The position numbers and the translations under genes were made by a program. A stretch of DNA of 64,000 nt from Escherichia coli (GTDB lineage Bacteria > Pseudomonadota > Gammaproteobacteria > Enterobacterales > Enterobacteriaceae): NCBI RefSeq assembly GCF_011045215.1, contig NZ_CP049201.1; one strand, written 5' to 3'. Below, piece by piece: positions 2,228 through 29,704 of this stretch (positions are counted from its first letter, which is position 1; every line of letters begins with the position of its first letter). The notes beneath the pieces are model-generated. The model was not told where the DNA came from, searched no databases, and saw only the letters and a list, made by a program, of their open reading frames with translations.

Positions 2228-3041
2228 GTTTGCCCTTCTCCGTTAAAAATTCGTCGGGTAGTTTCTGAGGGGCGTAGATCGGCAGTGCATCGCAACTGCA
2301 ATAAACCTCCTCCCCGGCAGCAGTGATTTCGTCATAAAAACCATATACGGGCTTAATCAGCCCCTGCTCCAGCGCCCACGAATCGCGGAGGAGATAAATT
2401 TTCTCGTCGCGCTCTTTGTGGTCCTGTCGGTATTTGTAGCCCGGACGCCGCCAATTCGAATGCCAGCGCAGAGCAATCGCTCCACTCTGAACAGCCAGCA
2501 GATACTTAACGTTGCTTGCCAGCTTATGCCCCTGGTCAATTGCCACCCGACGACTGATAAAATCCATATCCTTCACGGATTTCTGAAACCCGGCCTTCAC
2601 TTCCCGGCGATCAATTTCGCTCACCCCGTCAGGCGGAATGGACGTAACCCAACCCTGAAAACGCTGTATGGTTTTCTCGATGGCCTGTTCTCGGTTGAGT
2701 TTTATCAGGTTGGCACTGGCGAAAATTCGCCTGTCGAGTTCCTTGCGAAACTCAGGTTTCAGTTTTTCAACAGTGATTTTTTTAGGGCCGTCAGGAGGCT
2801 GATCCCGTAATGCCCCGCCGTCGATGACAAGACGGCTGTAGATAGCGGTGAGGTGTTTTCTGGCTACGGTATCATCAGGGGTTTCTCGCTGAGCGGCTAC
2901 ACGGAGTTTCCGGCACCATTCGAGCAATGATTTTTCGCTATCCCACCCGTGATTTACGTAGTAGTTAACGGCATCCGTCAGAACCTCATACAGCGTCCTG
3001 ATCCGTTTCTTCTTCCTCACCGCCCGGCTGGAAATTGCCAT
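2208..3041 (-). CDS. phage head morphogenesis protein (Mu F / SPP1 gp7-like minor head protein); start uncertain
   Basis: ORF immediately downstream of portal in late operon; track ORF (2208-3179) overlaps portal so an internal start is assumed. Confidence 0.35.
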   Translation of the reverse strand: MAISSRAVRKKKRIRTLYEVLTDAVNYYVNHGWDSEKSLLEWCRKLRVAAQRETPDDTVARKHLTAIYSRLVIDGGALRDQPPDGPKKITVEKLKPEFRKELDRRIFASANLIKLNREQAIEKTIQRFQGWVTSIPPDGVSEIDRREVKAGFQKSVKDMDFISRRVAIDQGHKLASNVKYLLAVQSGAIALRWHSNWRRPGYKYRQDHKERDEKIYLLRDSWALEQGLIKPVYGFYDEITAAGEEVYCSCDALPIYAPQKLPDEFLTEKGKREFNRA

Positions 3042-4425
3042 CAGGCGTCTCCTGCTTCGGTGGTTCATAATTCGCCAGCGCGTCCACATCAATGATGAGT
3101 GGAGCTTCGCCATAGGTTTGCGTGGCATTAACAAGGCTTGCCAGCCATTCAGTGACGGCGGCACGGTTTTCAGGATCAACCTGTGGCGACACGGCAGAGA
3201 AAAGTGCTATCGCCTGTTGAATCACTTTACTGTCGCTTTCCCGGCGTTTGTCCGGCGACTCCTCCACCAGCTCCTGCCATGTCGCGGTAAATTCACGTCG
3301 CCACTGGTAAAACGTGGTTTTATAGTCATCAGTTATGATGTCCGGGTAATCATTTTTCAGCGACTGATAAAATTCCTCGTTCCAGGCGATGTACTGCACC
3401 AGGCGTTCGAAATAATCCATCACGGGTTCAATCTGCTGGCGTACACCATCGATATACTGGCTGATGGCTTTCGAATCTTCGGTCCCCTCACCGAAACCAT
3501 TCGAAAAGGCTTCCTCTTTGATGAGGATCGCCGGAACGTCACTCCCTGACGCAATATCGGAAATAATATTGTCGCGTGCAGCGTTTAGCGCACCATCGAT
3601 GTTTTGTAGATTTAGCGAGGTAACGTCCTCATCCTTCCCGATACTAAGCACACCTTTATTTTTTGCCTCTTTGACGTTTTCCCTTTTTCGTCCCGTGGCG
3701 GCAGCCATGATCCCGTCAAGTTTCGAACCGTACTGCACAACTTTAGCTACCAGTACGCCCGCCTTCTGGCTGACGAGATCATTCGCCTCCATCGTGTTGA
3801 TATAGGATTTCAGGGAATAAAGAACGCGCTGAAACACACTTCGTCCGGTGAATCCGAACGATGAACTCTGAAACTCCAGATAAATCGGTGTGCCGTTGAA
3901 GATTTTCAGTGTGCGTGACGGATGCCAGTCTTTCCCACCAATCTTCAGTTTTTTATTGGCTTCCTGGAAAAACGGGCTGTTGGGGTTCTGGTCAGTCACC
4001 ATCGAACCGGAAGCGTTCAACGGGTCCCACGCGTTGATATACACGTCATCTTCTGTCAGTCCGAACGTCGGAAGCGGTTCACGACATGGAACGCTGTCGG
4101 TGCCCACGCCGATCGCTGCAGCACCGTAGCAACGAGACAGAAAAAACAGATTTTTAATCTTCTCGTTGACCTTCATGCGTTCCCATACCTCCTGAAAACG
4201 CCTCACAACCCTCTCGTCAGGGTCTGTCTCCACGTTATACTGGCGCGGCTTACACATCGCCATCAGTATGGGTTTTTCGACAAGTTTTCCGCCCAGAGGA
4301 TGGAATTGCCACAGCTGCTTACACAATTCATAGCCAATGTCGGTTCCCGGCTGAATTTCTTCAGCCTCAAGAATACGCATCAGTGCCGAACCGAGGCCGC
4401 CAGTAATCTCGATCTCTGCCATCAA
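2986..4425 (-). CDS. phage portal protein, 479 aa
   Basis: Large ORF directly downstream of terminase large subunit with acidic C-terminus; canonical position of portal. Confidence 0.55.
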   Translation of the reverse strand: MMAEIEITGGLGSALMRILEAEEIQPGTDIGYELCKQLWQFHPLGGKLVEKPILMAMCKPRQYNVETDPDERVVRRFQEVWERMKVNEKIKNLFFLSRCYGAAAIGVGTDSVPCREPLPTFGLTEDDVYINAWDPLNASGSMVTDQNPNSPFFQEANKKLKIGGKDWHPSRTLKIFNGTPIYLEFQSSSFGFTGRSVFQRVLYSLKSYINTMEANDLVSQKAGVLVAKVVQYGSKLDGIMAAATGRKRENVKEAKNKGVLSIGKDEDVTSLNLQNIDGALNAARDNIISDIASGSDVPAILIKEEAFSNGFGEGTEDSKAISQYIDGVRQQIEPVMDYFERLVQYIAWNEEFYQSLKNDYPDIITDDYKTTFYQWRREFTATWQELVEESPDKRRESDSKVIQQAIALFSAVSPQVDPENRAAVTEWLASLVNATQTYGEAPLIIDVDALANYEPPKQETPDGNFQPGGEEEETDQDAV

Positions 4426-4439
4426 AAATATCCTGATTT

Positions 4440-5768
4440 TTACAACTCCGCGTAATTACCGTGCGCGATGATCAATCCATAGGTGTAACAATCGAAAAGG
4501 TCATCAGCACGTTTATGCGCGTCTTTGTCTGCCAGGTGGAACCCGGCGATTTGTTTGATGAGGTGGTTTGCGGTTGTGCGCTTGAATGAAACGGTTTTGT
4601 CGTAAGCCTCGCGGGTAATTTTGCATTTACCCTGGTAATGGTGGCTGGAAGCCAGCACCGCGCGCTCGTCTTTCCCTTTGCTGGTTAACGCTGATTTAAT
4701 CGGCGTCATATCCCAGCCTTCGGTTTCCGCTTTCTGGTTGAGGATTGCGCCCATTGCGGCATCCTCCATGAATACCCCCTGACTCCCCAGGCGCGGGCGG
4801 CAGAGTTGCGCCAGCCGCTCGAGGTTGTCATAAACACCGGGGATATACTCAGGAAGCAGCGACGCTTTAATTTGCGTCACATCCCAGTCGATAACGGTCA
4901 GTTTCGGCTCATCGGAATACGTGGACTCATACGCGAAGTAAACCACGCCTGTCCCGTCGTTCTCCGTCCCGCCTTTCAGCGCCGTATCCATTACCGCAAA
5001 AATCATGTCGCAGTGTCGCGGCATCTCAACCGGCTGGCCATCCACCAGCAGCTTATCGACATCGAGTAACGCGTCTTTGGACCAGTCTACGAACTCTGCA
5101 AGATATTCCTGCTGCCAGACGCGCGGATCGGATTTCTTCTCCGTTTCCTCCAGTTCTTCTTTCGGAATATACGGATTCGATGAAGTTGGCGCATGGTGCA
5201 TAACAAATCCCAGGGATTCATCGTGGCATATCGCGTAGAAAAAATTGCTCTCGTCGATACCGTTTGGTGTGGAAAATACCCACGCACAGCCGCGGTAATC
5301 GACAAGCGTCGGGCGTATCGCTCGGGGCCAGATTTCCTCGAGCATTTCCGGCGATTTAGTGAATGCGGCCTCATCAATCAGCACAGCGTGATATTTACGC
5401 CCACGCCCGGCCAGTTTGTTATTGTCCGTTACCCAAAAGTCGATGCGCCCCCCATTACGGAGAATGATGCGCTTTTCATTTTTTGACTGACTGAGGATCA
5501 GCGGTTGCAGAACGGCGCTAATTTCATCCCAGATTTCCTGGTACTGGCGGTATTGCGCGGTAAAAATCCCCACCCTACCCGCGATAAGTTGCCCGGTGGT
5601 AGGAACGGCAAATTTCCGCGTAGCGAAACTGGTAGCGATGTTCACCAGCATCACCGTTTTACCCCAGCGACGACCACAGCATACCGCGTGGAAGCGTTCC
5701 TCTATTGCCGCCGTCCATGCAGCTATTTGCCCCTCATGAGGTTTTGGGAGGTAGATTTCAATCGACAT
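4440..5768 (-). CDS. terminase large subunit, 442 aa
   Basis: Walker A-like motif CGRRWGKT near N-terminus, acidic nuclease-like C-terminal half; follows the small-subunit gene with a 4-codon overlap. Confidence 0.75.
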   Translation of the reverse strand: MSIEIYLPKPHEGQIAAWTAAIEERFHAVCCGRRWGKTVMLVNIATSFATRKFAVPTTGQLIAGRVGIFTAQYRQYQEIWDEISAVLQPLILSQSKNEKRIILRNGGRIDFWVTDNNKLAGRGRKYHAVLIDEAAFTKSPEMLEEIWPRAIRPTLVDYRGCAWVFSTPNGIDESNFFYAICHDESLGFVMHHAPTSSNPYIPKEELEETEKKSDPRVWQQEYLAEFVDWSKDALLDVDKLLVDGQPVEMPRHCDMIFAVMDTALKGGTENDGTGVVYFAYESTYSDEPKLTVIDWDVTQIKASLLPEYIPGVYDNLERLAQLCRPRLGSQGVFMEDAAMGAILNQKAETEGWDMTPIKSALTSKGKDERAVLASSHHYQGKCKITREAYDKTVSFKRTTANHLIKQIAGFHLADKDAHKRADDLFDCYTYGLIIAHGNYAEL

Positions 5769-6849
5769 TATCCACTCCCGGCATCGGCAGAGAGTTGTGG
5801 ATAATTATTTCGTTATTCTCACCACCCACGCCTTTTTTGAGGTTTTCAATCTCAGTGCGCAGCTTTTCGTTGCGAAGCCTCAGTCCTTCAAGCTCCAGAT
5901 CATTGCGACTGTCAGTTGCACCACCAGCAGAACTTCCTTTCGTCGCCATTATCAGCTTGATAAGTTCGCGCCGGGCGGCAGCCTTATCCTCCAGCAGGAT
6001 CTCAACACCAAATTTCCCGAGCTTTGCCCCTGCATATAATTGTCGCGCATCCCCATCAAGCAGAGTGGTATCAGCCATATAAAGCTGTCCCGTTCCCTCA
6101 CCGCAGCACTTCGGACAATCCGGATTGGGTATGGCGTTATCAACAAAGCCGAGGCCTCCATATTCCGGCTCGGGTTTGCCATCTCTGGAGGCCTGTGCCG
6201 CTGCCTTATCGAATTCTGCAATATCACGCCACTGGTAGAGGTGATTCTCGCCCCAGCAATAACGGCAGTTAACACGGCGAAATTGTGCCAACTGATTGGG
6301 GTCGGCCTGGACAATGGCCATCAACTGACTCACCAGTAAATCCAGGTCTGCGGTATAGCGTTTCTGATACTGATTGCGGAAGTAGCTGATAGCACGATAA
6401 ACCCTGGCATTTCTAAGCATACGGCTGGCGTTGCTGTTAGCTGTCGCACCTTGCCCCTCATAACCAGCCAGTCGGTATGCCTCTGTCGGCTTTTTCCCCT
6501 GAGCAACAAGCATCGCAAACTTAGCCTGCTGGTCAGAAATGCCGAATTCATCGGGGCAGAACGAAAATTCCTCCGCGTCGCCCTCATTCAGGCACGCATC
6601 GGATACTGGCTTTTTTTTCTGAGATTTTCCGTTCCGCTTTTGCGCAGTCTGCGCAGATTTTTTCTGCGCACTTTGTTGCGCAGTTTTGCGCATTTCTGTC
6701 TGCGCATTTTTCGGAGGTTTTTTGATGTAACGACGGGCTGTTGCGTAATTCAGTCCCCTTGCCTCACACCATGCCACCGGGGATACACCGGAGCGGGTGT
6801 ATTCAGCAATATATTCCTGCTGCAACGCCCCCCAGTCCGGTCTGCTCAT
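5758..6849 (-). CDS. terminase small subunit-like protein, 363 aa
   Basis: N-terminal HTH-like region, basic Lys/Gln-rich linker, position immediately upstream of terminase large subunit. Confidence 0.5.
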   Translation of the reverse strand: MSRPDWGALQQEYIAEYTRSGVSPVAWCEARGLNYATARRYIKKPPKNAQTEMRKTAQQSAQKKSAQTAQKRNGKSQKKKPVSDACLNEGDAEEFSFCPDEFGISDQQAKFAMLVAQGKKPTEAYRLAGYEGQGATANSNASRMLRNARVYRAISYFRNQYQKRYTADLDLLVSQLMAIVQADPNQLAQFRRVNCRYCWGENHLYQWRDIAEFDKAAAQASRDGKPEPEYGGLGFVDNAIPNPDCPKCCGEGTGQLYMADTTLLDGDARQLYAGAKLGKFGVEILLEDKAAARRELIKLIMATKGSSAGGATDSRNDLELEGLRLRNEKLRTEIENLKKGVGGENNEIIIHNSLPMPGVDNVD

Positions 6850-6852
6850 TAG

Positions 6853-7062
6853 TTAGTCCTGATTTTTATCCACCCTGAGTAGTTCACGCAGGGCAAAGGC
6901 ATCCCCTTTTCTGGCAAGCTTAAACAATGCCGCCCGTAGTTCGGCTTCACCTTTCGCTCTGCCCTTACGGATGGATGCGTAAAAATCTGTCATTGCTTCC
7001 CGATTTTCTTTCAGTCGGTTCAGATCAACATCCAGAACGTCAGCGATTTGTTGTGCAGTCAT
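6853..7062 (-). CDS. small HTH-like phage protein (about 69 aa from internal Met)
   Basis: Short ORF between GT-A-like gene and terS; alpha-helical basic sequence; start chosen to avoid overlap with upstream gene. Confidence 0.3.
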   Translation of the reverse strand: MTAQQIADVLDVDLNRLKENREAMTDFYASIRKGRAKGEAELRAALFKLARKGDAFALRELLRVDKNQD

Positions 7063-7990
7063 CCGGCACGCTGCCAGAGACTCGACTTTCGAATACGGAA
7101 TCATTTGTCACCCCCATTGATATGCAGGGTGTCTTCTTCCTGTATTTTTCGTGAAGGATTTTTACTGCAGCGTTGTTCCAGGTGACCTGATGGTGAATGC
7201 GTTTATGGCTGGCCCCCATCAGTGAGATTTTTACGCACGAGGGCGCATACATGACGGAGTAAAAACTTTTAACGTAGGTTCCGGAATCCAGATACAGCTC
7301 GGTCATTCCGCCGCTGTTTTTCTGCGTCTGTTTCTGCCCTAACTGGACAGCACCGATCGTCATAAACAATTCACCACAGCGACCGAGATTCGTGTACGTA
7401 TTCACATCCTCGTTAATGCGCCCCATGAATGAGAACGGTCGATCAACCGAACAGATAAAGCTGTTCATTGCCTTGCGTTTCACCCACGAAGCATGGCCGC
7501 CATTGTCACCAAGAAAATCCCCGCCCTGCGACATAGCGATGGAAAGCGCAGGTATTGATTCGTAGTACGCCAGCATTTCAGAAAGGATCGCATCCAGTTT
7601 TCTTATCGGGAAATAGGCCTGGTCATAGTTGCGATCCACCCGAAACTGAAACTCGTGATAATCATCATCGAGCTGAATGAAGTATTTACACCCGACCAGT
7701 TTTGCCAGGTCGAAACAGGCATTACGGGCGTAAAAAATTGAGCGGCGATCACCGAAATTATCGGCTTCGTCAAAACGACTGGCTATATCGGCTTTGGAAA
7801 ACACCAGCACCTGTTCACCAAATTCAGCTATGTACTGATGCCGTGTCTTATCTTCATCATCAACAACGATAAAAATTTTCCCGGTATAGCCAGCACGACG
7901 CAACGTCCGGTAAGTCAGAACTTTGTCCGGTCGCCCGTGAGTCAGAATAAAGGCGCAAAAATCATCACGCATATTCCTCCTCCCCGCCAT
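7040..7990 (-). CDS. hypothetical protein with GT-A-like (nucleotide-diphospho-sugar transferase-like) motifs, about 310 aa
   Basis: N-terminal FILTHGRPD...IFIVVDDED and a later LDDDY (DXD-like) motif resemble GT2-type glycosyltransferases; translationally coupled to the upstream ParB-like gene. Confidence 0.35.
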   Translation of the reverse strand: MAGRRNMRDDFCAFILTHGRPDKVLTYRTLRRAGYTGKIFIVVDDEDKTRHQYIAEFGEQVLVFSKADIASRFDEADNFGDRRSIFYARNACFDLAKLVGCKYFIQLDDDYHEFQFRVDRNYDQAYFPIRKLDAILSEMLAYYESIPALSIAMSQGGDFLGDNGGHASWVKRKAMNSFICSVDRPFSFMGRINEDVNTYTNLGRCGELFMTIGAVQLGQKQTQKNSGGMTELYLDSGTYVKSFYSVMYAPSCVKISLMGASHKRIHHQVTWNNAAVKILHEKYRKKTPCISMGVTNDSVFESRVSGSVPDDCTTNR

Positions 7991-22985: not shown

Positions 22986-24887
22986 ATGAGCATAAAACAA
23001 CACTTCCTGTTACGGAAAGCGAAAAAATCATCCGGTGAACCTGACGCAGTTCTGTGGGCAAGCGACGATCTCGAATCGACCAGTGCCACTCTGGACTACC
23101 TGATTGTTAAGTCAGGTAAAAAACTGAGCAACTATTTTAAAGCTGTTGCTACGAATTTTCCTGTCGTTAACGACCTGCCCCCAGAAGGGGAGATCGATTT
23201 TACGTGGTGTGAACGCTATCAACTCGGCAAGGACTCCATCACCTGGGAACTAAAACCAGGTGCAGCACCAGACGACGTTCACCATCAGGAGAATATCCCG
23301 GAAACTGAAGAACTGGCTGGAGACCAGGAAGAAAACGCGCAGGCGGACGCTCACGGGGATTGCCAGGATTGCGAAGTTCCTGTAGCCACACTCAGTCTTA
23401 CTCATCGTTTCCTTCATCTCTTCTTTTTCGGTCAGATGGAAGGTGGAAAATACAGTAGTCACGCCACGCCGGAACAGCGCAATACCGTCATCCGGATGGA
23501 GCTGGATACGGAGGACAGCTACCTCCAGAGTCTGCTTACAGCAGTACGCTCTCATCCTGAACTGGATAAGCTGACAAACCACCATCTTGGCAGACTGGCG
23601 GAGTCTGTATCCAGAGTGTTTACCCACACAGAAACCCGTTGCATCAGCCCCGCTGAATTCGACAAATTCATTTCCACCTGGATGAAAACTGATTATCTGG
23701 ATCAGGGATTACTGACAAAAGAATGGGCGAAGGGAAACTGCGTATCTGAAATCAATCGCACCCCGTCGGGCGCTAATGCCGGTGGCGGTATCCTTACCGA
23801 CCGTGGAGAAGGTTTTGTCCATGATGATGCATCAGTAGCGCGTGACGTAGCCGCTGGCGTACTGGCACGTTCAATGGATATCGATATTTACAATCCACAT
23901 CCAGCACACGCTAAACGTATTGGGGAAATTGTCGCTGAAAATAAACCGCCATTTTCTGTTTTTTTCAGCAAATTCATCACCATGCCTGGCCACAAGGATT
24001 TCTCCCGCGCCATCGTGGTTGCGTCCGTGAAAGAAGCGCCAGTCGGTATAGAGGCTACCCCACACCATGTCACTGAATATCTGAACAGGGTGCTGACTGA
24101 AACCGATCATGCCAACCCTGATCCGGAAATCGTGGATATTGCCTGCGGTCGCTCCTCTGCCCCGATGCCACAGCGTGTAACAGAAGAAGAAAAACCGCAA
24201 CCATCTTGCGCAATGGCAGATGAACAGGCAACGGCTGAAACAGTGGAACCGGATACAAGTGAACATCATCAGGACACGCAGCCGCTGGATGCCAAGTCAC
24301 AGGCCGATGCGAAATATCAGAAACTGCGGGAAGAACTCCATGAAGCCCGGAAAAACATTCCGCCCAAAAATCCTGTCGATACAGACAAAATGCTGGCAGT
24401 CCATCGCGGTGAGTTCGTTGAAGGAATTAGCGACCCGAATGATCCGAAATGGGTGAAGGGAATTGAAACCCGCGATTCTGTGAACCAGAACCTGCCAGAA
24501 ACGGAAAAAACCAGTCAGGATGTGAAACAACCTGAGCCAGTAGTGCAACGGGAACCGGAAATAGTCTGCACCGCCTGCGGTCAGAGCGGTGGCGGCAACT
24601 GCCCTGATTGTGGCGCGGTGATGGGCGACGCAACATATCAGGAAACATTCGATGAAGAGAATCAGGCTGAAACTCAGGAAAATGATCCGGAGGAAATGGA
24701 AGGCACTGAACCATCATTAGAAAAACTCGACTGGAAAAGACAAGTGGTGATTGCGGCTGTTTATGGTTTGTGTGCGAATCCTGCAGGTATAGCCTCAGCG
24801 CCATTAATTCCGGGTATTGCAATGATGATTGCCAACAAGCTTGAAAATTTTGGGGTGACGGATGATGAGCACATACCCGATTTTTGA
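22986..24887 (+). CDS. recE: RecE N-terminal region homolog lacking the C-terminal exonuclease domain, 633 aa
   Basis: N-terminus [26 protein letters not shown] and internal blocks ([50 protein letters not shown]) match my recollection of Rac RecE residues 1 to about 600; ORF ends where the gam-like gene begins. Confidence 0.55.
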
Positions 24888-25161
24888 TCGCATTGAAGAG
24901 CTGGCATGGTCACGCCACTACCAGCAGATCGTTCGCGAAGAAAAAGAAACGGAGCTGGCAGACGACCTGGAAAAAGGTCTACCCCAGCACCTGTTTGAAT
25001 CGCTCTGCATCGACCATTTGCAACGCCACGGTGCCAGCAAACAGGCAATCAGTCGCGCATTTGATGACGATGTTGAATTTCAGGAACGCGTGGCGGAACA
25101 CATCCGGTACATGGTTGAAACCATTGCTCGTCACCAGGTTGATATTGATTTGAAGGTATAA
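24862..25161 (+). CDS. gam: Gam-like RecBCD inhibitor (short form), 99 aa
   Basis: [45 protein letters not shown]...HQVDID closely matches lambda Gam. Confidence 0.8.
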
Positions 25162-25166
25162 AACAA

Positions 25167-25952
25167 ATGAGTACAGCACTTGCAACACTGGCCGGGAAGC
25201 TGGCTGAACGTGTCGGCATGGATTCTGTCGACCCACAGGAACTGATCACCACTCTTCGCCAGACAGCATTTAAAGGCGATGCCAGCGATGCGCAGTTCAT
25301 CGCATTGCTGATCGTCGCCAACCAATACGGCCTTAATCCGTGGACGAAAGAAATTTACGCCTTCCCTGATAAGCAGAACGGCATCGTTCCGGTGGTGGGC
25401 GTTGATGGCTGGTCCCGCATCATCAATGAAAACCAGCAGTTTGATGGCATGGACTTTGAGCAGGACAATGAATCCTGTACATGCCGGATTTACCGCAAGG
25501 ACCGTAATCATCCGATCTGCGTTACCGAATGGATGGATGAATGCCGCCGCGAACCATTCAAAACCCGCGAAGGCAGAGAAATCACCGGACCGTGGCAGTC
25601 GCATCCCAAACGAATGTTGCGGCATAAAGCCATGATTCAGTGTGCCCGTCTGGCCTTCGGATTTGCTGGTATCTATGACAAGGATGAAGCCGAGCGCATT
25701 GTCGAAAATACCGCATACACTGCAGAACGTCAGCCAGAACGCGACATCACTCCGGTTAACGATGAAACCATGCAGGAGATTAACACTCTGCTGATCGCCC
25801 TGGATAAAACATGGGATGACGACTTATTGCCGCTCTGTTCCCAGATATTTCGCCGCGACATTCGCGCATCGTCAGAACTGACACAGGCCGAAGCAGTGAA
25901 AGCTCTTGGATTCCTGAAACAGAAAGCCACTGAGCAGAAGGTGGCAGCATGA
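25167..25952 (+). CDS. bet: Bet (Red-beta) single-strand annealing protein, 261 aa
   Basis: Near-identical to lambda Bet over its length ([37 protein letters not shown]...). Confidence 0.9.
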
Positions 25953-26629
25953 CACCGGACATTATCCTGCAGCGTACAGGGATCGACGTGAGAGCTGTCG
26001 AACAGGGGGATGATGCATGGCACAAATTACGGCTCGGCGTCATCACCGCTTCAGAAGTTCACAACGTGATAGCAAAGCCCCGCTCAGGAAAGAAGTGGCC
26101 TGACATGAAAATGTCCTACTTCCACACCCTGCTGGCTGAGGTTTGCACCGGTGTGGCTCCGGAAGTTAATGCTAAGGCGCTGGCCTGGGGAAAACAGTAC
26201 GAGAACGACGCCAGAACCCTGTTTGAATTCACTTCCGGCGTGAATGTTACTGAATCCCCGATCATCTATCGCGACGAAAGTATGCGCACCGCCTGCTCTC
26301 CCGATGGTTTATGCAGTGACGGCAACGGCCTTGAACTGAAATGCCCGTTTACCTCCCGGGATTTCATGAAATTCCGGCTCGGTGGTTTCGAGGCAATAAA
26401 ATCGGCTTACATGGCCCAGGTGCAGTACAGCATGTGGGTGACGCGAAAAGATGCCTGGTACTTTGCCAACTATGACCCGCGTATGAAGCGTGAAGGCCTG
26501 CATTATGTCGTGGTTGAGCGGGATGAAAAGTACATGGCGAGTTTTGACGAGATGGTGCCGGAGTTCATCGAAAAAATGGACGAGGCACTGGCTGAAATTG
26601 GTTTTGTATTTGGGGAGCAATGGAAATGA
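25949..26629 (+). CDS. exo: lambda-type Exo (Red-alpha) 5'-3' exonuclease, 226 aa
   Basis: Near-identical to lambda Exo ([40 protein letters not shown]...). Confidence 0.9.
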
Positions 26630-26856
26630 GCGCAGCCACAAAGCTCACAGGAGAAAAACCAGTGCGATACACAAAAATTAAACCATGTCCATTTTGTGGT
26701 TGTCCATCAGTAACGGTGAAAGCCATTTCAGGATATTACCGAGCGAAGTGTAACGGATGCGAATCCCGAACCGGTTATGGTGGAAGTGAAAAGGAAGCAC
26801 TCGAAAGATGGAATAAACGAACCACTGGAAATAATAATGGAGGTGTTCATGTATAA
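26620..26856 (+). CDS. ralR: RalR-like restriction-alleviation protein / type I toxin
   Basis: [48 protein letters not shown] matches Rac RalR. Confidence 0.7.
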
Positions 26857-27037
26857 AATTACCGCCACTATTGAAAAGGAAGGTGGCACTCCTACTAACT
26901 GGACAAGATATTCAAAATCTAAACTAACGAAATCAGAATGCGAAAAAATGCTCTCAGGTAAAAAAGAAGCGGGCGTTTCCAGAGAGCAGAAAGTAAAACT
27001 GATAAATTTTAATTGCGAGAAACTTCAGTCCTGGTGA
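26837..27037 (+). CDS. ydaC: YdaC-like small protein; start uncertain
   Basis: [23 protein letters not shown]...; position between ralR and xis as in Rac. Confidence 0.5.
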   Translation: MEVFMYKITATIEKEGGTPTNWTRYSKSKLTKSECEKMLSGKKEAGVSREQKVKLINFNCEKLQSW

Positions 27038-27136
27038 ATTGCATTGTATTCAAATTAAAACTTCATAGCTGATTATTAATAATCAACATCGGGCGTCAAT
27101 TTCAGTCTAACATTGGCGCCTGCCAGAGGTGATGCG

Positions 27137-27352
27137 ATGGCACAAGTAATCTTTAATGAAGAGTGGATGGTTGAATACGGCCTGATGCTTCGCACTGGTC
27201 TGGGGGCCAGACAAATTGAAGCATACCGCCAGAACTGTTGGGTGGAAGGCTTCCACTTCAAACGAGTATCTCCTTTAGGGAAGCCAGACAGTAAGCGAGG
27301 GATTATCTGGTACAACTATCCAAAGATAAATCAGTTTATCAAAGACTCATGA
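27137..27352 (+). CDS. ydaQ: excisionase-like protein (YdaQ/XisR-like), 71 aa
   Basis: [32 protein letters not shown]...; immediately upstream of integrase. Confidence 0.65.
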
Positions 27353-27353
27353 T

Positions 27354-28589
27354 ATGTCTAAATTACCAACAGGTGTCGAGATTCGAGGTAAATACATTCG
27401 CATCTGGTTCATGTTTCGAGGAAAACGATGCCGGGAAACATTGAAAGGCTGGGAGGTTACTAACAGTAACATTAAAAAAGCCGGGAATTTAAGAGCGTTG
27501 ATAGTTCATGAAATCAATTCCGGTGAATTTGAGTATTTAAGACGTTTCCCCCAGTCCGGCACTGGGGCAAAAATGGTGACAACTAGGGTCATAAAAACGT
27601 TCGGGGAGCTTTGTGATATCTGGACAAAAATTAAAGAGACAGAGTTAACAACAAACACAATGAAGAAAACGAAATCACAATTAAAAACACTCAAGATAAT
27701 AATTTGTGAGAGTACCCCGATATCGCATATTCGTTATAGCGATATCTTAAACTACCGGAATGAACTGCTGCATGGAGAAACGCTTTACCTGGATAATCCA
27801 AGATCCAACAAAAAAGGAAGAACCGTGCGCACAGTTGATAACTATATCGCCCTACTCTGTTCGCTGTTACGTTTTGCGTATCAGTCGGGATTTATATCAA
27901 CCAAACCATTTGAAGGAGTAAAAAAATTACAGCGAAACAGAATAAAGCCTGACCCGTTATCTAAAACAGAATTCAATGCATTAATGGAAAGTGAAAAAGG
28001 ACAGAGCCAGAACTTATGGAAATTTGCCGTTTACTCAGGACTTCGTCACGGGGAACTGGCAGCTCTGGCGTGGGAGGATGTGGATCTCGAGAAGGGAATT
28101 GTGAATGTCAGAAGAAACCTGACGATACTTGATATGTTCGGTCCCCCAAAAACAAATGCCGGGATCCGGACAGTAACACTACTGCAGCCTGCTCTTGAAG
28201 CACTGAAGGAGCAATACAAACTGACCGGACATCATCGCAAAAGCGAAATCACCTTTTATCATAGGGAGTACGGCAGAACCGAAAAGCAAAAACTGCATTT
28301 TGTTTTCATGCCCAGGATGTGTAACGGAAAACAGAAACCTTATTACTCGGTAAGCAGTTTGGGTGCGAGATGGAATGCAGCAGTAAAACGTGCTGGTATT
28401 CGCCGCCGTAATCCGTACCATACGCGGCATACTTTTGCCTGCTGGCTGTTGACGGCAGGAGCGAACCCGGCGTTTATAGCCAGCCAGATGGGGCATGAAA
28501 CTGCGCAGATGGTGTATGAAATTTACGGTATGTGGATTGATGACATGAACGACGAACAGGTAGCCATGTTGAATGCGCGGTTATCGTAA
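27354..28589 (+). CDS. intR: tyrosine-type site-specific integrase (IntR-like), 411 aa
   Basis: C-terminal catalytic region with R...HTRHT...Y residues; last phage gene before ttcA. Confidence 0.85.
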   Translation: MSKLPTGVEIRGKYIRIWFMFRGKRCRETLKGWEVTNSNIKKAGNLRALIVHEINSGEFEYLRRFPQSGTGAKMVTTRVIKTFGELCDIWTKIKETELTTNTMKKTKSQLKTLKIIICESTPISHIRYSDILNYRNELLHGETLYLDNPRSNKKGRTVRTVDNYIALLCSLLRFAYQSGFISTKPFEGVKKLQRNRIKPDPLSKTEFNALMESEKGQSQNLWKFAVYSGLRHGELAALAWEDVDLEKGIVNVRRNLTILDMFGPPKTNAGIRTVTLLQPALEALKEQYKLTGHHRKSEITFYHREYGRTEKQKLHFVFMPRMCNGKQKPYYSVSSLGARWNAAVKRAGIRRRNPYHTRHTFACWLLTAGANPAFIASQMGHETAQMVYEIYGMWIDDMNDEQVAMLNARLS

Positions 28590-28640
28590 TTGCAAAGTTT
28601 GCCCCCAATTTGCCCCATTTAGTACCAGAGAACTGAAATA

Positions 28641-29576
28641 ATGCAAGAAAATCAAAAGAATACGAAGAAAGAGATATACAATCTGAACAAATTACAAAAA
28701 CGCCTGCGTCGTAACGTGGGCGAAGCCATTGCTGACTTCAATATGATTGAAGAAGGCGATCGCATCATGGTTTGCCTCTCCGGGGGTAAAGACAGCTATA
28801 CCATGCTGGAGATTCTGCGCAATTTGCAGCAAAGCGCGCCAATCAATTTTTCGCTGGTGGCTGTTAACCTCGATCAAAAGCAACCGGGCTTCCCGGAACA
28901 CGTTCTGCCCGAGTATCTTGAAAAGCTGGGCGTTGAGTACAAGATTGTTGAAGAGAACACTTACGGTATCGTGAAAGAGAAGATTCCAGAGGGCAAAACC
29001 ACTTGCTCACTGTGTTCTCGGCTACGTCGCGGTATCCTTTATCGCACCGCAACGGAACTGGGGGCGACGAAGATCGCGTTGGGCCACCATCGTGACGATA
29101 TCCTGCAAACGTTGTTCTTAAATATGTTCTACGGCGGTAAGATGAAAGGTATGCCTCCGAAACTGATGAGCGATGATGGCAAACATATCGTTATTCGTCC
29201 GCTGGCCTACTGCCGCGAGAAAGATATTCAGCGATTTGCCGATGCAAAAGCGTTCCCGATTATTCCGTGCAACCTGTGCGGTTCACAGCCTAACCTGCAA
29301 CGTCAGGTGATTGCTGACATGTTGCGTGACTGGGATAAACGTTATCCAGGGCGTATCGAGACGATGTTCAGCGCGATGCAGAATGTGGTGCCGTCGCATC
29401 TGTGCGATACCAACCTGTTCGATTTCAAAGGCATCACCCACGGTTCTGAAGTGGTTAACGGGGGTGATCTTGCGTTTGATCGCGAAGAGATCCCACTACA
29501 ACCGGCGGGCTGGCAGCCAGAAGAAGATGAAAATCAGTTGGATGAGTTACGGCTGAATGTGGTTGAAGTGAAATAA
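28641..29576 (+). CDS. ttcA: tRNA 2-thiocytidine(32) synthetase TtcA
   Basis: PP-loop SGGKDS and CxxC motifs; 311 aa. Confidence 0.9.
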
Positions 29577-29584
29577 CCCGGATA

Positions 29585-29695
29585 GCGCCCGATGCGCAAG
29601 CGTATCGGGCTACTCTAATGGAGGCCGGATAAGACGCGGCCAGCGTCGCATCCGGCAATCCCGAATAAGATGTTTACTCTTGCACCCGGCAATTC
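29585..29695. repeat. REP-like palindromic units in the ttcA-dbpA intergenic
   Basis: gccggataagacgcg...cgcatccggc imperfect palindromes. Confidence 0.5.
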
Positions 29696-29704
29696 AACAT
29701 TTCA

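Follow-up and report, generated by a model that had tools for sequence, protein, structure and literature searches.

The 5′ end of the ttcA gene is phage-derived at a Rac-type prophage junction in Escherichia coli

Organization of the int-ttcA locus

As listed in Table 1, the int side of a prophage meets the ttcA gene of E. coli in the window, which is the whole 64,000-nt stretch of DNA analyzed in this study. The prophage spans position 1 to about 28690 and extends past the left edge of the window. Its packaging genes lie at 2986-6849, and lambda-type Exo and Bet, a Q-like antiterminator, replication genes, a terminase, and a portal are encoded 5′ of the int gene. On the 3′ side of ttcA lies ordinary E. 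coli chromosome (dbpA, ynaL, zntB, and others), which is 99.5-99.6% identical to that of many strains. A second copy of the attachment-site core was not found within the 64,000-nt window.

The stop codon (TAA) of the int ORF is at 28587-28589, while the ttcA ORF (28641..29576 on the plus strand, 311 aa) starts with the ATG at 28641-28643. Thus, the gap is exactly 51 bp (28590..28640), as had been stated in the initial annotation of this DNA. The integrase has an Arm-DNA-bind_2 domain (PF12167, residues 5-68, E = 1.5e-26) and a Phage_integrase domain (PF00589, residues 205-391), and is 98.5% identical to K-12 IntR over 411 aa. The TtcA protein was assigned by the NCBIfam equivalog NF007972 (513 bits vs. 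a cutoff of 272, residues 3-290), matches the PP-loop family PF01171, and has the SGGKDS motif at residues 47-52.

Two other regions of the prophage may be mentioned here. One is a mosaic recombination module at 22986-26629, which consists of a 633-aa RecE-family ORF (phrog_607, exonuclease) and, next to it, the ORFs for lambda-type Bet (261 aa) and Exo (226 aa). The other is a 316-aa ORF on the minus strand at 7040-7990, which resembles phrog_842 (annotated as beta-glucosyl-HMC-alpha-glucosyltransferase, E = 5e-103) and might encode a prophage-borne glycosyltransferase that modifies DNA or the cell surface.

Table 1. Features of the int-ttcA junction (window coordinates)
Feature	Position	Strand	Basis or remark
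XisR/YdaQ-like excisionase gene, 71 aa	27137..27352	+	Pfam DUF1233 putative excisionase, E = 6e-21; directly 5′ of int, like K-12 xisR
Rac-type tyrosine integrase (IntR homologue), 411 aa	27354..28589	+	Pfam domains; identity to K-12 IntR
int-ttcA spacer, all phage DNA, int-proximal P′-like arm; in the lysogen, it provides ttcA with its 5′ leader and ribosome-binding region	28590..28640	+	No homology to the upstream region of empty sites; almost the same sequence as at the K-12 Rac and Rac-SA53 junctions
Two direct TTTGCCCC repeats, probable arm-type integrase sites	28598..28616	+	Recurrence in the distal arm of relatives
Phage-derived ttcA 5′ end (start codon and codons 1-12)	28641..28675	+	12 nt and 6 aa differences from native
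IHF-like site AATCAAAAGAATA	28651..28663	+	Read from sequence; one mismatch to WATCAANNNNTTR
Attachment-site core block AAGAAAGAGATATACAATCTGAACAA, codons 9-17	28665..28690	+	Counterpart of the K-12 26-bp block identical at both ends
Host-derived rest of ttcA (codons 18-311 and stop)	28691..29576	+	Identity to empty-site TtcA

Comparison with unoccupied sites

The initial annotation had proposed that the N-terminus of TtcA may be phage-derived, with an alignment to an unoccupied site as the check. In the prophage-free strain 2452 and in O157:H7 C1-057, uspF is directly followed by ttcA and dbpA. For both empty sites, the alignment with the window starts at about 28648, and nothing upstream of the ATG could be aligned. 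There are scattered differences at 28641-28682, and the sequences are essentially identical from about 28690. TtcA residues 2, 3, 6, 7, 8, and 12 differ between the window and the two empty-site proteins, whose native N-terminus is MSQNQEISKKEQ (or MSQNQEISKKEQYN in a 14-residue form). In contrast, residues 13-311 are identical to those of O157:H7 C1-057 and differ from those of strain 2452 by one substitution (residue 290). Thus, neither the N-terminus of TtcA nor the upstream region is identical to that of an unoccupied site. The six substitutions fall outside the conserved fold; no TtcA structure was found in the PDB, and the similarity to the solved NcsA/TtuA structures starts at residues 16-28.

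A query of 901 nt across the junction matched 5403 of the 5426 complete E. coli genomes. A match spanning both int and ttcA was found in about 2905-2907 of the 5426 genomes (~54%). In the other genomes, among the matches listed, the match starts at query position 439-491, typically at 449, which corresponds to window position 28648. With respect to the arm type, about 347 of the 5426 genomes have a Rac-SA53-type arm (95-99% identity) and about 2605 have a K-12-type arm (90-95%). The exact junction sequence (28560-28730) was absent from the 5426 complete E. coli genomes, the best match being 98.2% identical, and an identical junction was not found among the GTDB species representatives either. 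A match in LT615378 (H40), which seemed to begin precisely where the core ends, was discarded as an assembly artefact with N runs; at this locus (L034, NZ_LT615378, 2450-3010), the 5′ end of ttcA is duplicated with N runs between the two copies.

Position of the core and the crossover

In the annotation of K-12 MG1655, the Rac boundary is placed 50 nt inside ttcA, and a 51-nt pseudogene, ttcC, lies at the far end of Rac beside uspF. A three-way alignment of both K-12 junctions and the empty site revealed a common 26-bp block, AAGAAAGAACAATACAACCTGAACAA. On the left of this block, the int-side junction is phage-specific, while on the right of it the uspF-side junction becomes phage DNA (GTAAGGGCAAAA...). 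The block is perfectly shared by the two K-12 junctions, whereas its counterpart in the window has 3-4 mismatches. The right edge of the core is the point where the distal junction diverges, immediately after CTGAACAA. It had been suggested in the initial annotation that the attachment core overlaps either the promoter or the 5′ coding region of ttcA. The core block lies in the 5′ coding region, so the latter half of this suggestion holds, while the overlap with the promoter does not.

At the far prophage ends of K-12 Rac, Rac-SA53, and E69, the native ATG and 17 codons down to CTGAACAA are followed by phage DNA. Thus, the crossover occurs inside the ttcA coding region. At all three distal junctions (n = 3), the native reading frame gives a truncated peptide, MSQNQEISKKEQYNLNK, and then ends in a stop codon. 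Together with the six substitutions relative to the empty sites, this displaced native 5′ fragment in the relatives bears out the proposal of a phage-derived N-terminus.

The Rac-SA53 record (KU052037), which has annotated 26-bp att sites, allows the crossover to be located more closely. On its int side, this record has the same GAT as the window does at 28673-28675, while the uspF-side junction keeps the native ACA at the corresponding position. Since the phage-derived 28673-28675 is shared by the window and the int side of Rac-SA53, I infer that the strand exchange took place within 28676-28690. This interval is deduced from the junctions of the relatives because the distal junction of the window prophage lies outside the window. 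The window has a T at 28682 instead of the native C, and the same synonymous change is seen in native sites of other species (L007, L027, and L032). This T may be either phage-derived or a host polymorphism; if it is phage-derived, the exchange region would narrow to CTGAACAA.

There is a break of homology at this junction, the 5′ end of ttcA is of phage origin, and the core is positioned within the coding region. With a probability of roughly 0.93, the region 28590-28700 is the int-proximal junction of a Rac-like lambdoid prophage that has supplied the 5′ end of ttcA. The junction is best explained as follows. The prophage was inserted by tyrosine-integrase site-specific recombination in codons 9-17 of the host ttcA gene. 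The phage attachment site bears a start codon and about 12 codons that imperfectly copy the beginning of ttcA. Upon integration, this copy and the phage DNA upstream of it take the place of the native start codon, the N-terminal codons, and the region upstream of them. The ttcA gene thereby remains an intact gene of 311 codons with a variant N-terminus in place of MSQNQEISKKEQ. The displaced native 5′ fragment (ATGTCGCAAAATCAAG...CTGAACAA) is expected at the other end of the prophage beside uspF, like ttcC of K-12, and the expected order at this distal junction is uspF, the native upstream region, ATGTCGCAAAATCAAGAAATTAG(T/C)AAGAAAGAACAATACAA(C/T)CTGAACAA, and then phage DNA (GTAAGGGCAAAA...).

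Two classes of ttcA 5′ ends

Is the variant N-terminus always associated with an integrase gene? A degenerate core pattern detected 28 loci among the one-genome-per-species GTDB representatives, which were pooled with the loci fetched earlier. In 17 junctions, the ttcA product begins with MQ(E/D/Q)NQ..., and in 16 of these an int homologue ends about 51-54 bp 5′ of the ATG. The int homologues at the MQ-type junctions are 53-99% identical, and some are reduced to remnants of 88-147 aa. The 17th MQ-type junction (Mangrovibacter, L017) has a visible int remnant. Another 17 junctions begin with MS(Q/E)NQ..., and 16 of the 17 have no integrase. The sole exception to this native-type/no-integrase rule is locus L031 (Lelliottia sp. 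V86_10), where a 26-aa integrase-like fragment (corresponding to Int residues 338-363) lies at about 210-287, just 5′ of a native-type MSQNQ start. The two-class pattern seen in these sequences agrees with Figure 5 of Liu et al. 2015 (PMC4632033) and extends it to more genera.

It might be argued that the N-terminal differences are mere host allelic variation, with the core lying upstream of the start codon and the whole coding sequence being host DNA, since the N-terminus of TtcA varies between genera and T/C at 28682 is a recurrent synonymous polymorphism found in native sites as well. However, an adjacent integrase accompanies the MQ type and is missing from the MS type almost without exception, the far ends of K-12 Rac, Rac-SA53, and E69 run from native ttcA codons into phage DNA, and excision in K-12 alters the N-terminus experimentally (PMC4632033 and PMC11014345). 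For K-12 and Rac-SA53, such an explanation is ruled out by the native 5′ fragment at the distal junction, and for the window it is extremely improbable.

Several loci in Citrobacter, Enterobacter, and E. coli (L014, L016, L028, L029, and L010) have a phage-type ttcA 5′ end beside only an 88-147-aa int remnant. In these genomes, the prophage apparently decayed and left its ttcA start behind as a permanent host allele. The junction in the window might likewise be a fixed scar, left by a defective prophage that can no longer excise, so that the ttcA 5′ end is now a permanent host allele. The remnants indicate that such fossilization happens, and K-12 Rac itself is cryptic. Nevertheless, the window prophage has an intact int gene (411 aa) and an intact excisionase gene, an intact core and arm repeats, and has kept its terminase, portal, Q, replication, and recombination genes. 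Even the defective K-12 Rac is able to excise (PMC4632033). A fixed scar is unlikely for the window.

Two unusual loci were also found. Mangrovibacter plantisponsor (L017) has an attP-like scar on the minus strand at about 3286-3311, both arms of which are of the phage type. The int remnant is followed by an ATG, 19 ttcA-like codons, and a stop codon, and then by non-ttcA DNA. In E. coli G1/2 (L035, NZ_CP060083, 1-3060), the ttcA site is taken up by an island of another kind. It has a gene for a Sll1717-family P-loop ATPase split by IS1 and an integrase pseudogene about 2.7 kb upstream, and it provides a further variant of the ttcA start, MPENQQVT..., with TTTGCCTC/ATGCCCC repeats upstream.

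Repeats in the spacer and the attachment-site architecture

The motif TTTGCCCC occurs twice in the spacer (28598-28605 and 28609-28616) as direct repeats 11 bp apart. In K-12 Rac, Rac-SA53, and E69, the motif is found three or four times in the same orientation in the distal arm, 105-153 bp from the core, and these copies again form 11-bp pairs. The Mangrovibacter scar (L017) has four copies of (T/A)TGCCCC at +107 to +170. Citrobacter, Enterobacter, and Shimwellia have diverged int-ttcA junctions, whose Int proteins are 53-75% identical. Most of these junctions retain a WTGCCCC pair with the 11-bp spacing, even where the rest of the spacer differs; L029 has one copy and L012 has none.

Since the repeats recur in the distal arm and the integrase has an arm-binding domain, they are best explained as putative arm-type sites, to which the integrase probably binds. 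The 51-bp spacer is the int-side arm of the attachment site and would hold two such sites. The repeats were also considered as promoter hexamers, a reading that was rejected because there is no acceptable -10 element 16-18 bp downstream; it is also opposed by the clustering of the motif in the distal arm of the phage, away from any gene start. A paper describing the TTTGCCCC arm-type sites was not found in the open-access literature.

The K-12 counterpart of the IHF-like site is AATCAACAAATTA, a perfect match to the IHF consensus, and IHF was mapped in vivo on this K-12 sequence at the int-side Rac junction (PMC8407004). In the direction from the core to int, the order is the IHF-like site, the start codon of ttcA, the arm repeats, and the end of int.

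Expression of ttcA in the lysogen

The DNA upstream of about 28676 is all phage DNA, and hence ttcA takes its ribosome-binding region, its start codon, and any promoter from the phage. Thus, the suggestion in the initial annotation that ttcA expression may depend on phage sequence is supported in terms of anatomy, while the promoter itself was not located. In scans of 28300-28760 and 26600-29700, no sigma-70-like promoter for ttcA scored above chance, and no terminator-like site was detected between int and ttcA. The empty site has a uspF terminator and then a promoter-like sequence, CTGACA-17-TACCAT, upstream of ttcA. In the lysogen, this native upstream region is left beside uspF, about one prophage-length away from ttcA. 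I infer that ttcA is transcribed from phage DNA in the lysogen. The transcription might be due to read-through from xis/int, which is possible because there is no terminator between int and ttcA, or to a weak non-consensus promoter.

An alternative would be that the integration silences ttcA, leaving an intact gene that is not expressed in lysogens. The lack of a sigma-70 consensus site in 28300-28760 and the loss of the CTGACA-17-TACCAT sequence from the ttcA upstream region are in line with this idea. Still, an in-frame start codon and a similar N-terminus are kept by the phage across diverged elements, which indicates selection for a working gene, and read-through from int meets no terminator. 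Moreover, a ttcA deletion in Rac-positive K-12 has a phenotype, and the two TtcA variants behave differently (PMC4632033). Silencing is thus very improbable.

The leader and start codon of ttcA lie between the putative arm repeats and the IHF-like site, with no terminator after int. For these reasons, it is possible, though rather improbable, that TtcA synthesis is wired to the xis/int transcription of the prophage and to the occupancy of the junction by the integrase and IHF. If so, the level of 2-thiocytidine-32 in tRNA would shift with the state of the prophage in about half of the E. coli strains.

Comparison with known systems

K-12 Rac and the window prophage have the same excisionase family, the same 51-bp spacer, and the same insertion site at ttcA codons 9-17, and only one base differs in the 60 nt upstream of the ATG. 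In both cases, the 5′ end of ttcA is replaced with a phage-borne one. K-12 Rac supplies MQENQQITKKEQ, with four changes from the native sequence, while the window prophage supplies six. The window prophage is larger and mosaic compared with K-12 Rac and carries packaging genes. It encodes lambda-type Bet/Exo, whereas K-12 Rac has RecT and a full-length 866-aa RecE at the same position. Rac-SA53 (KU052037) resembles the window more closely. It has the same junction type (GAGATATACAA...), an identical predicted N-terminus of TtcA, and a 98.8% identical integrase, and the far junction in the prophage record keeps the native sequence. It differs from the window in having a C at 28682 and in its annotated recT/recE.

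The window prophage shares a principle with e14 and phage 21 in icd and with the phages that integrate in tRNA genes. The attachment site nearly copies the displaced part of the target gene, which stays functional, and a pseudogene fragment remains at the far end, as summarized for e14 in icd in PMC6379469. However, e14, phage 21, and the tRNA integrators replace the 3′ end of a gene, while the window prophage replaces the 5′ end of ttcA. Thus, the phage must supply a start codon, a ribosome-binding region, and any promoter.

In lambda attP, the core, the IHF site H′, and the arm-type sites P′1-P′3 adjoin int. The window has the same arrangement, i.e., a core, an IHF-like site, tandem direct repeats about one helical turn apart, and the end of int. 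As in lambda, the repeat recurs in the other arm (the distal arms of the relatives), and the integrase has an N-terminal arm-binding domain. On the other hand, the putative arm-type repeat TTTGCCCC is unrelated in sequence to the lambda arm-type sites. Unlike in lambda attP, the start codon of a host gene lies between the arm repeats and the core.

Relation to previous studies and implications

Liu et al. 2015 (PMC4632033) reported the integration of Rac and Rac-like prophages in ttcA, the latter at the same site and with a similar effect on the N-terminus. As the two junctions match imperfectly, four N-terminal residues are altered upon excision, and precise excision in K-12 restores the native N-terminus and changes the behavior of TtcA. 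The strains form two groups by their TtcA N-termini, one with and one without Rac-like prophages. The two variants, which were compared by expression from a plasmid promoter, differ under carbenicillin stress, and the excisionase is YdaQ. As far as a text search of that paper shows, the chromosomal ttcA promoter is not treated in it. The sequence change on excision was confirmed in a 2023 NAR study (PMC11014345), and Rac in ttcA is listed alongside e14 in icd in a 2019 review (PMC6379469). The phage-derived N-terminus of TtcA at a Rac-type junction is thus already known, and the case in the window is a rediscovery. What is particular to the window is the Rac-SA53-type arm, six rather than four substitutions, the extra T at 28682, and the mosaic body with Bet/Exo.

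For annotation, the prophage boundary belongs inside ttcA, at about 28676-28690, and not in the intergenic spacer, and codons 1-12 of ttcA are of phage origin. The junction illustrates how a temperate phage can enter a working gene at its 5′ end and leave it functional, since the phage supplies a start codon and a leader of its own. About half of the sequenced E. coli strains would thus express a phage-flavoured TtcA.
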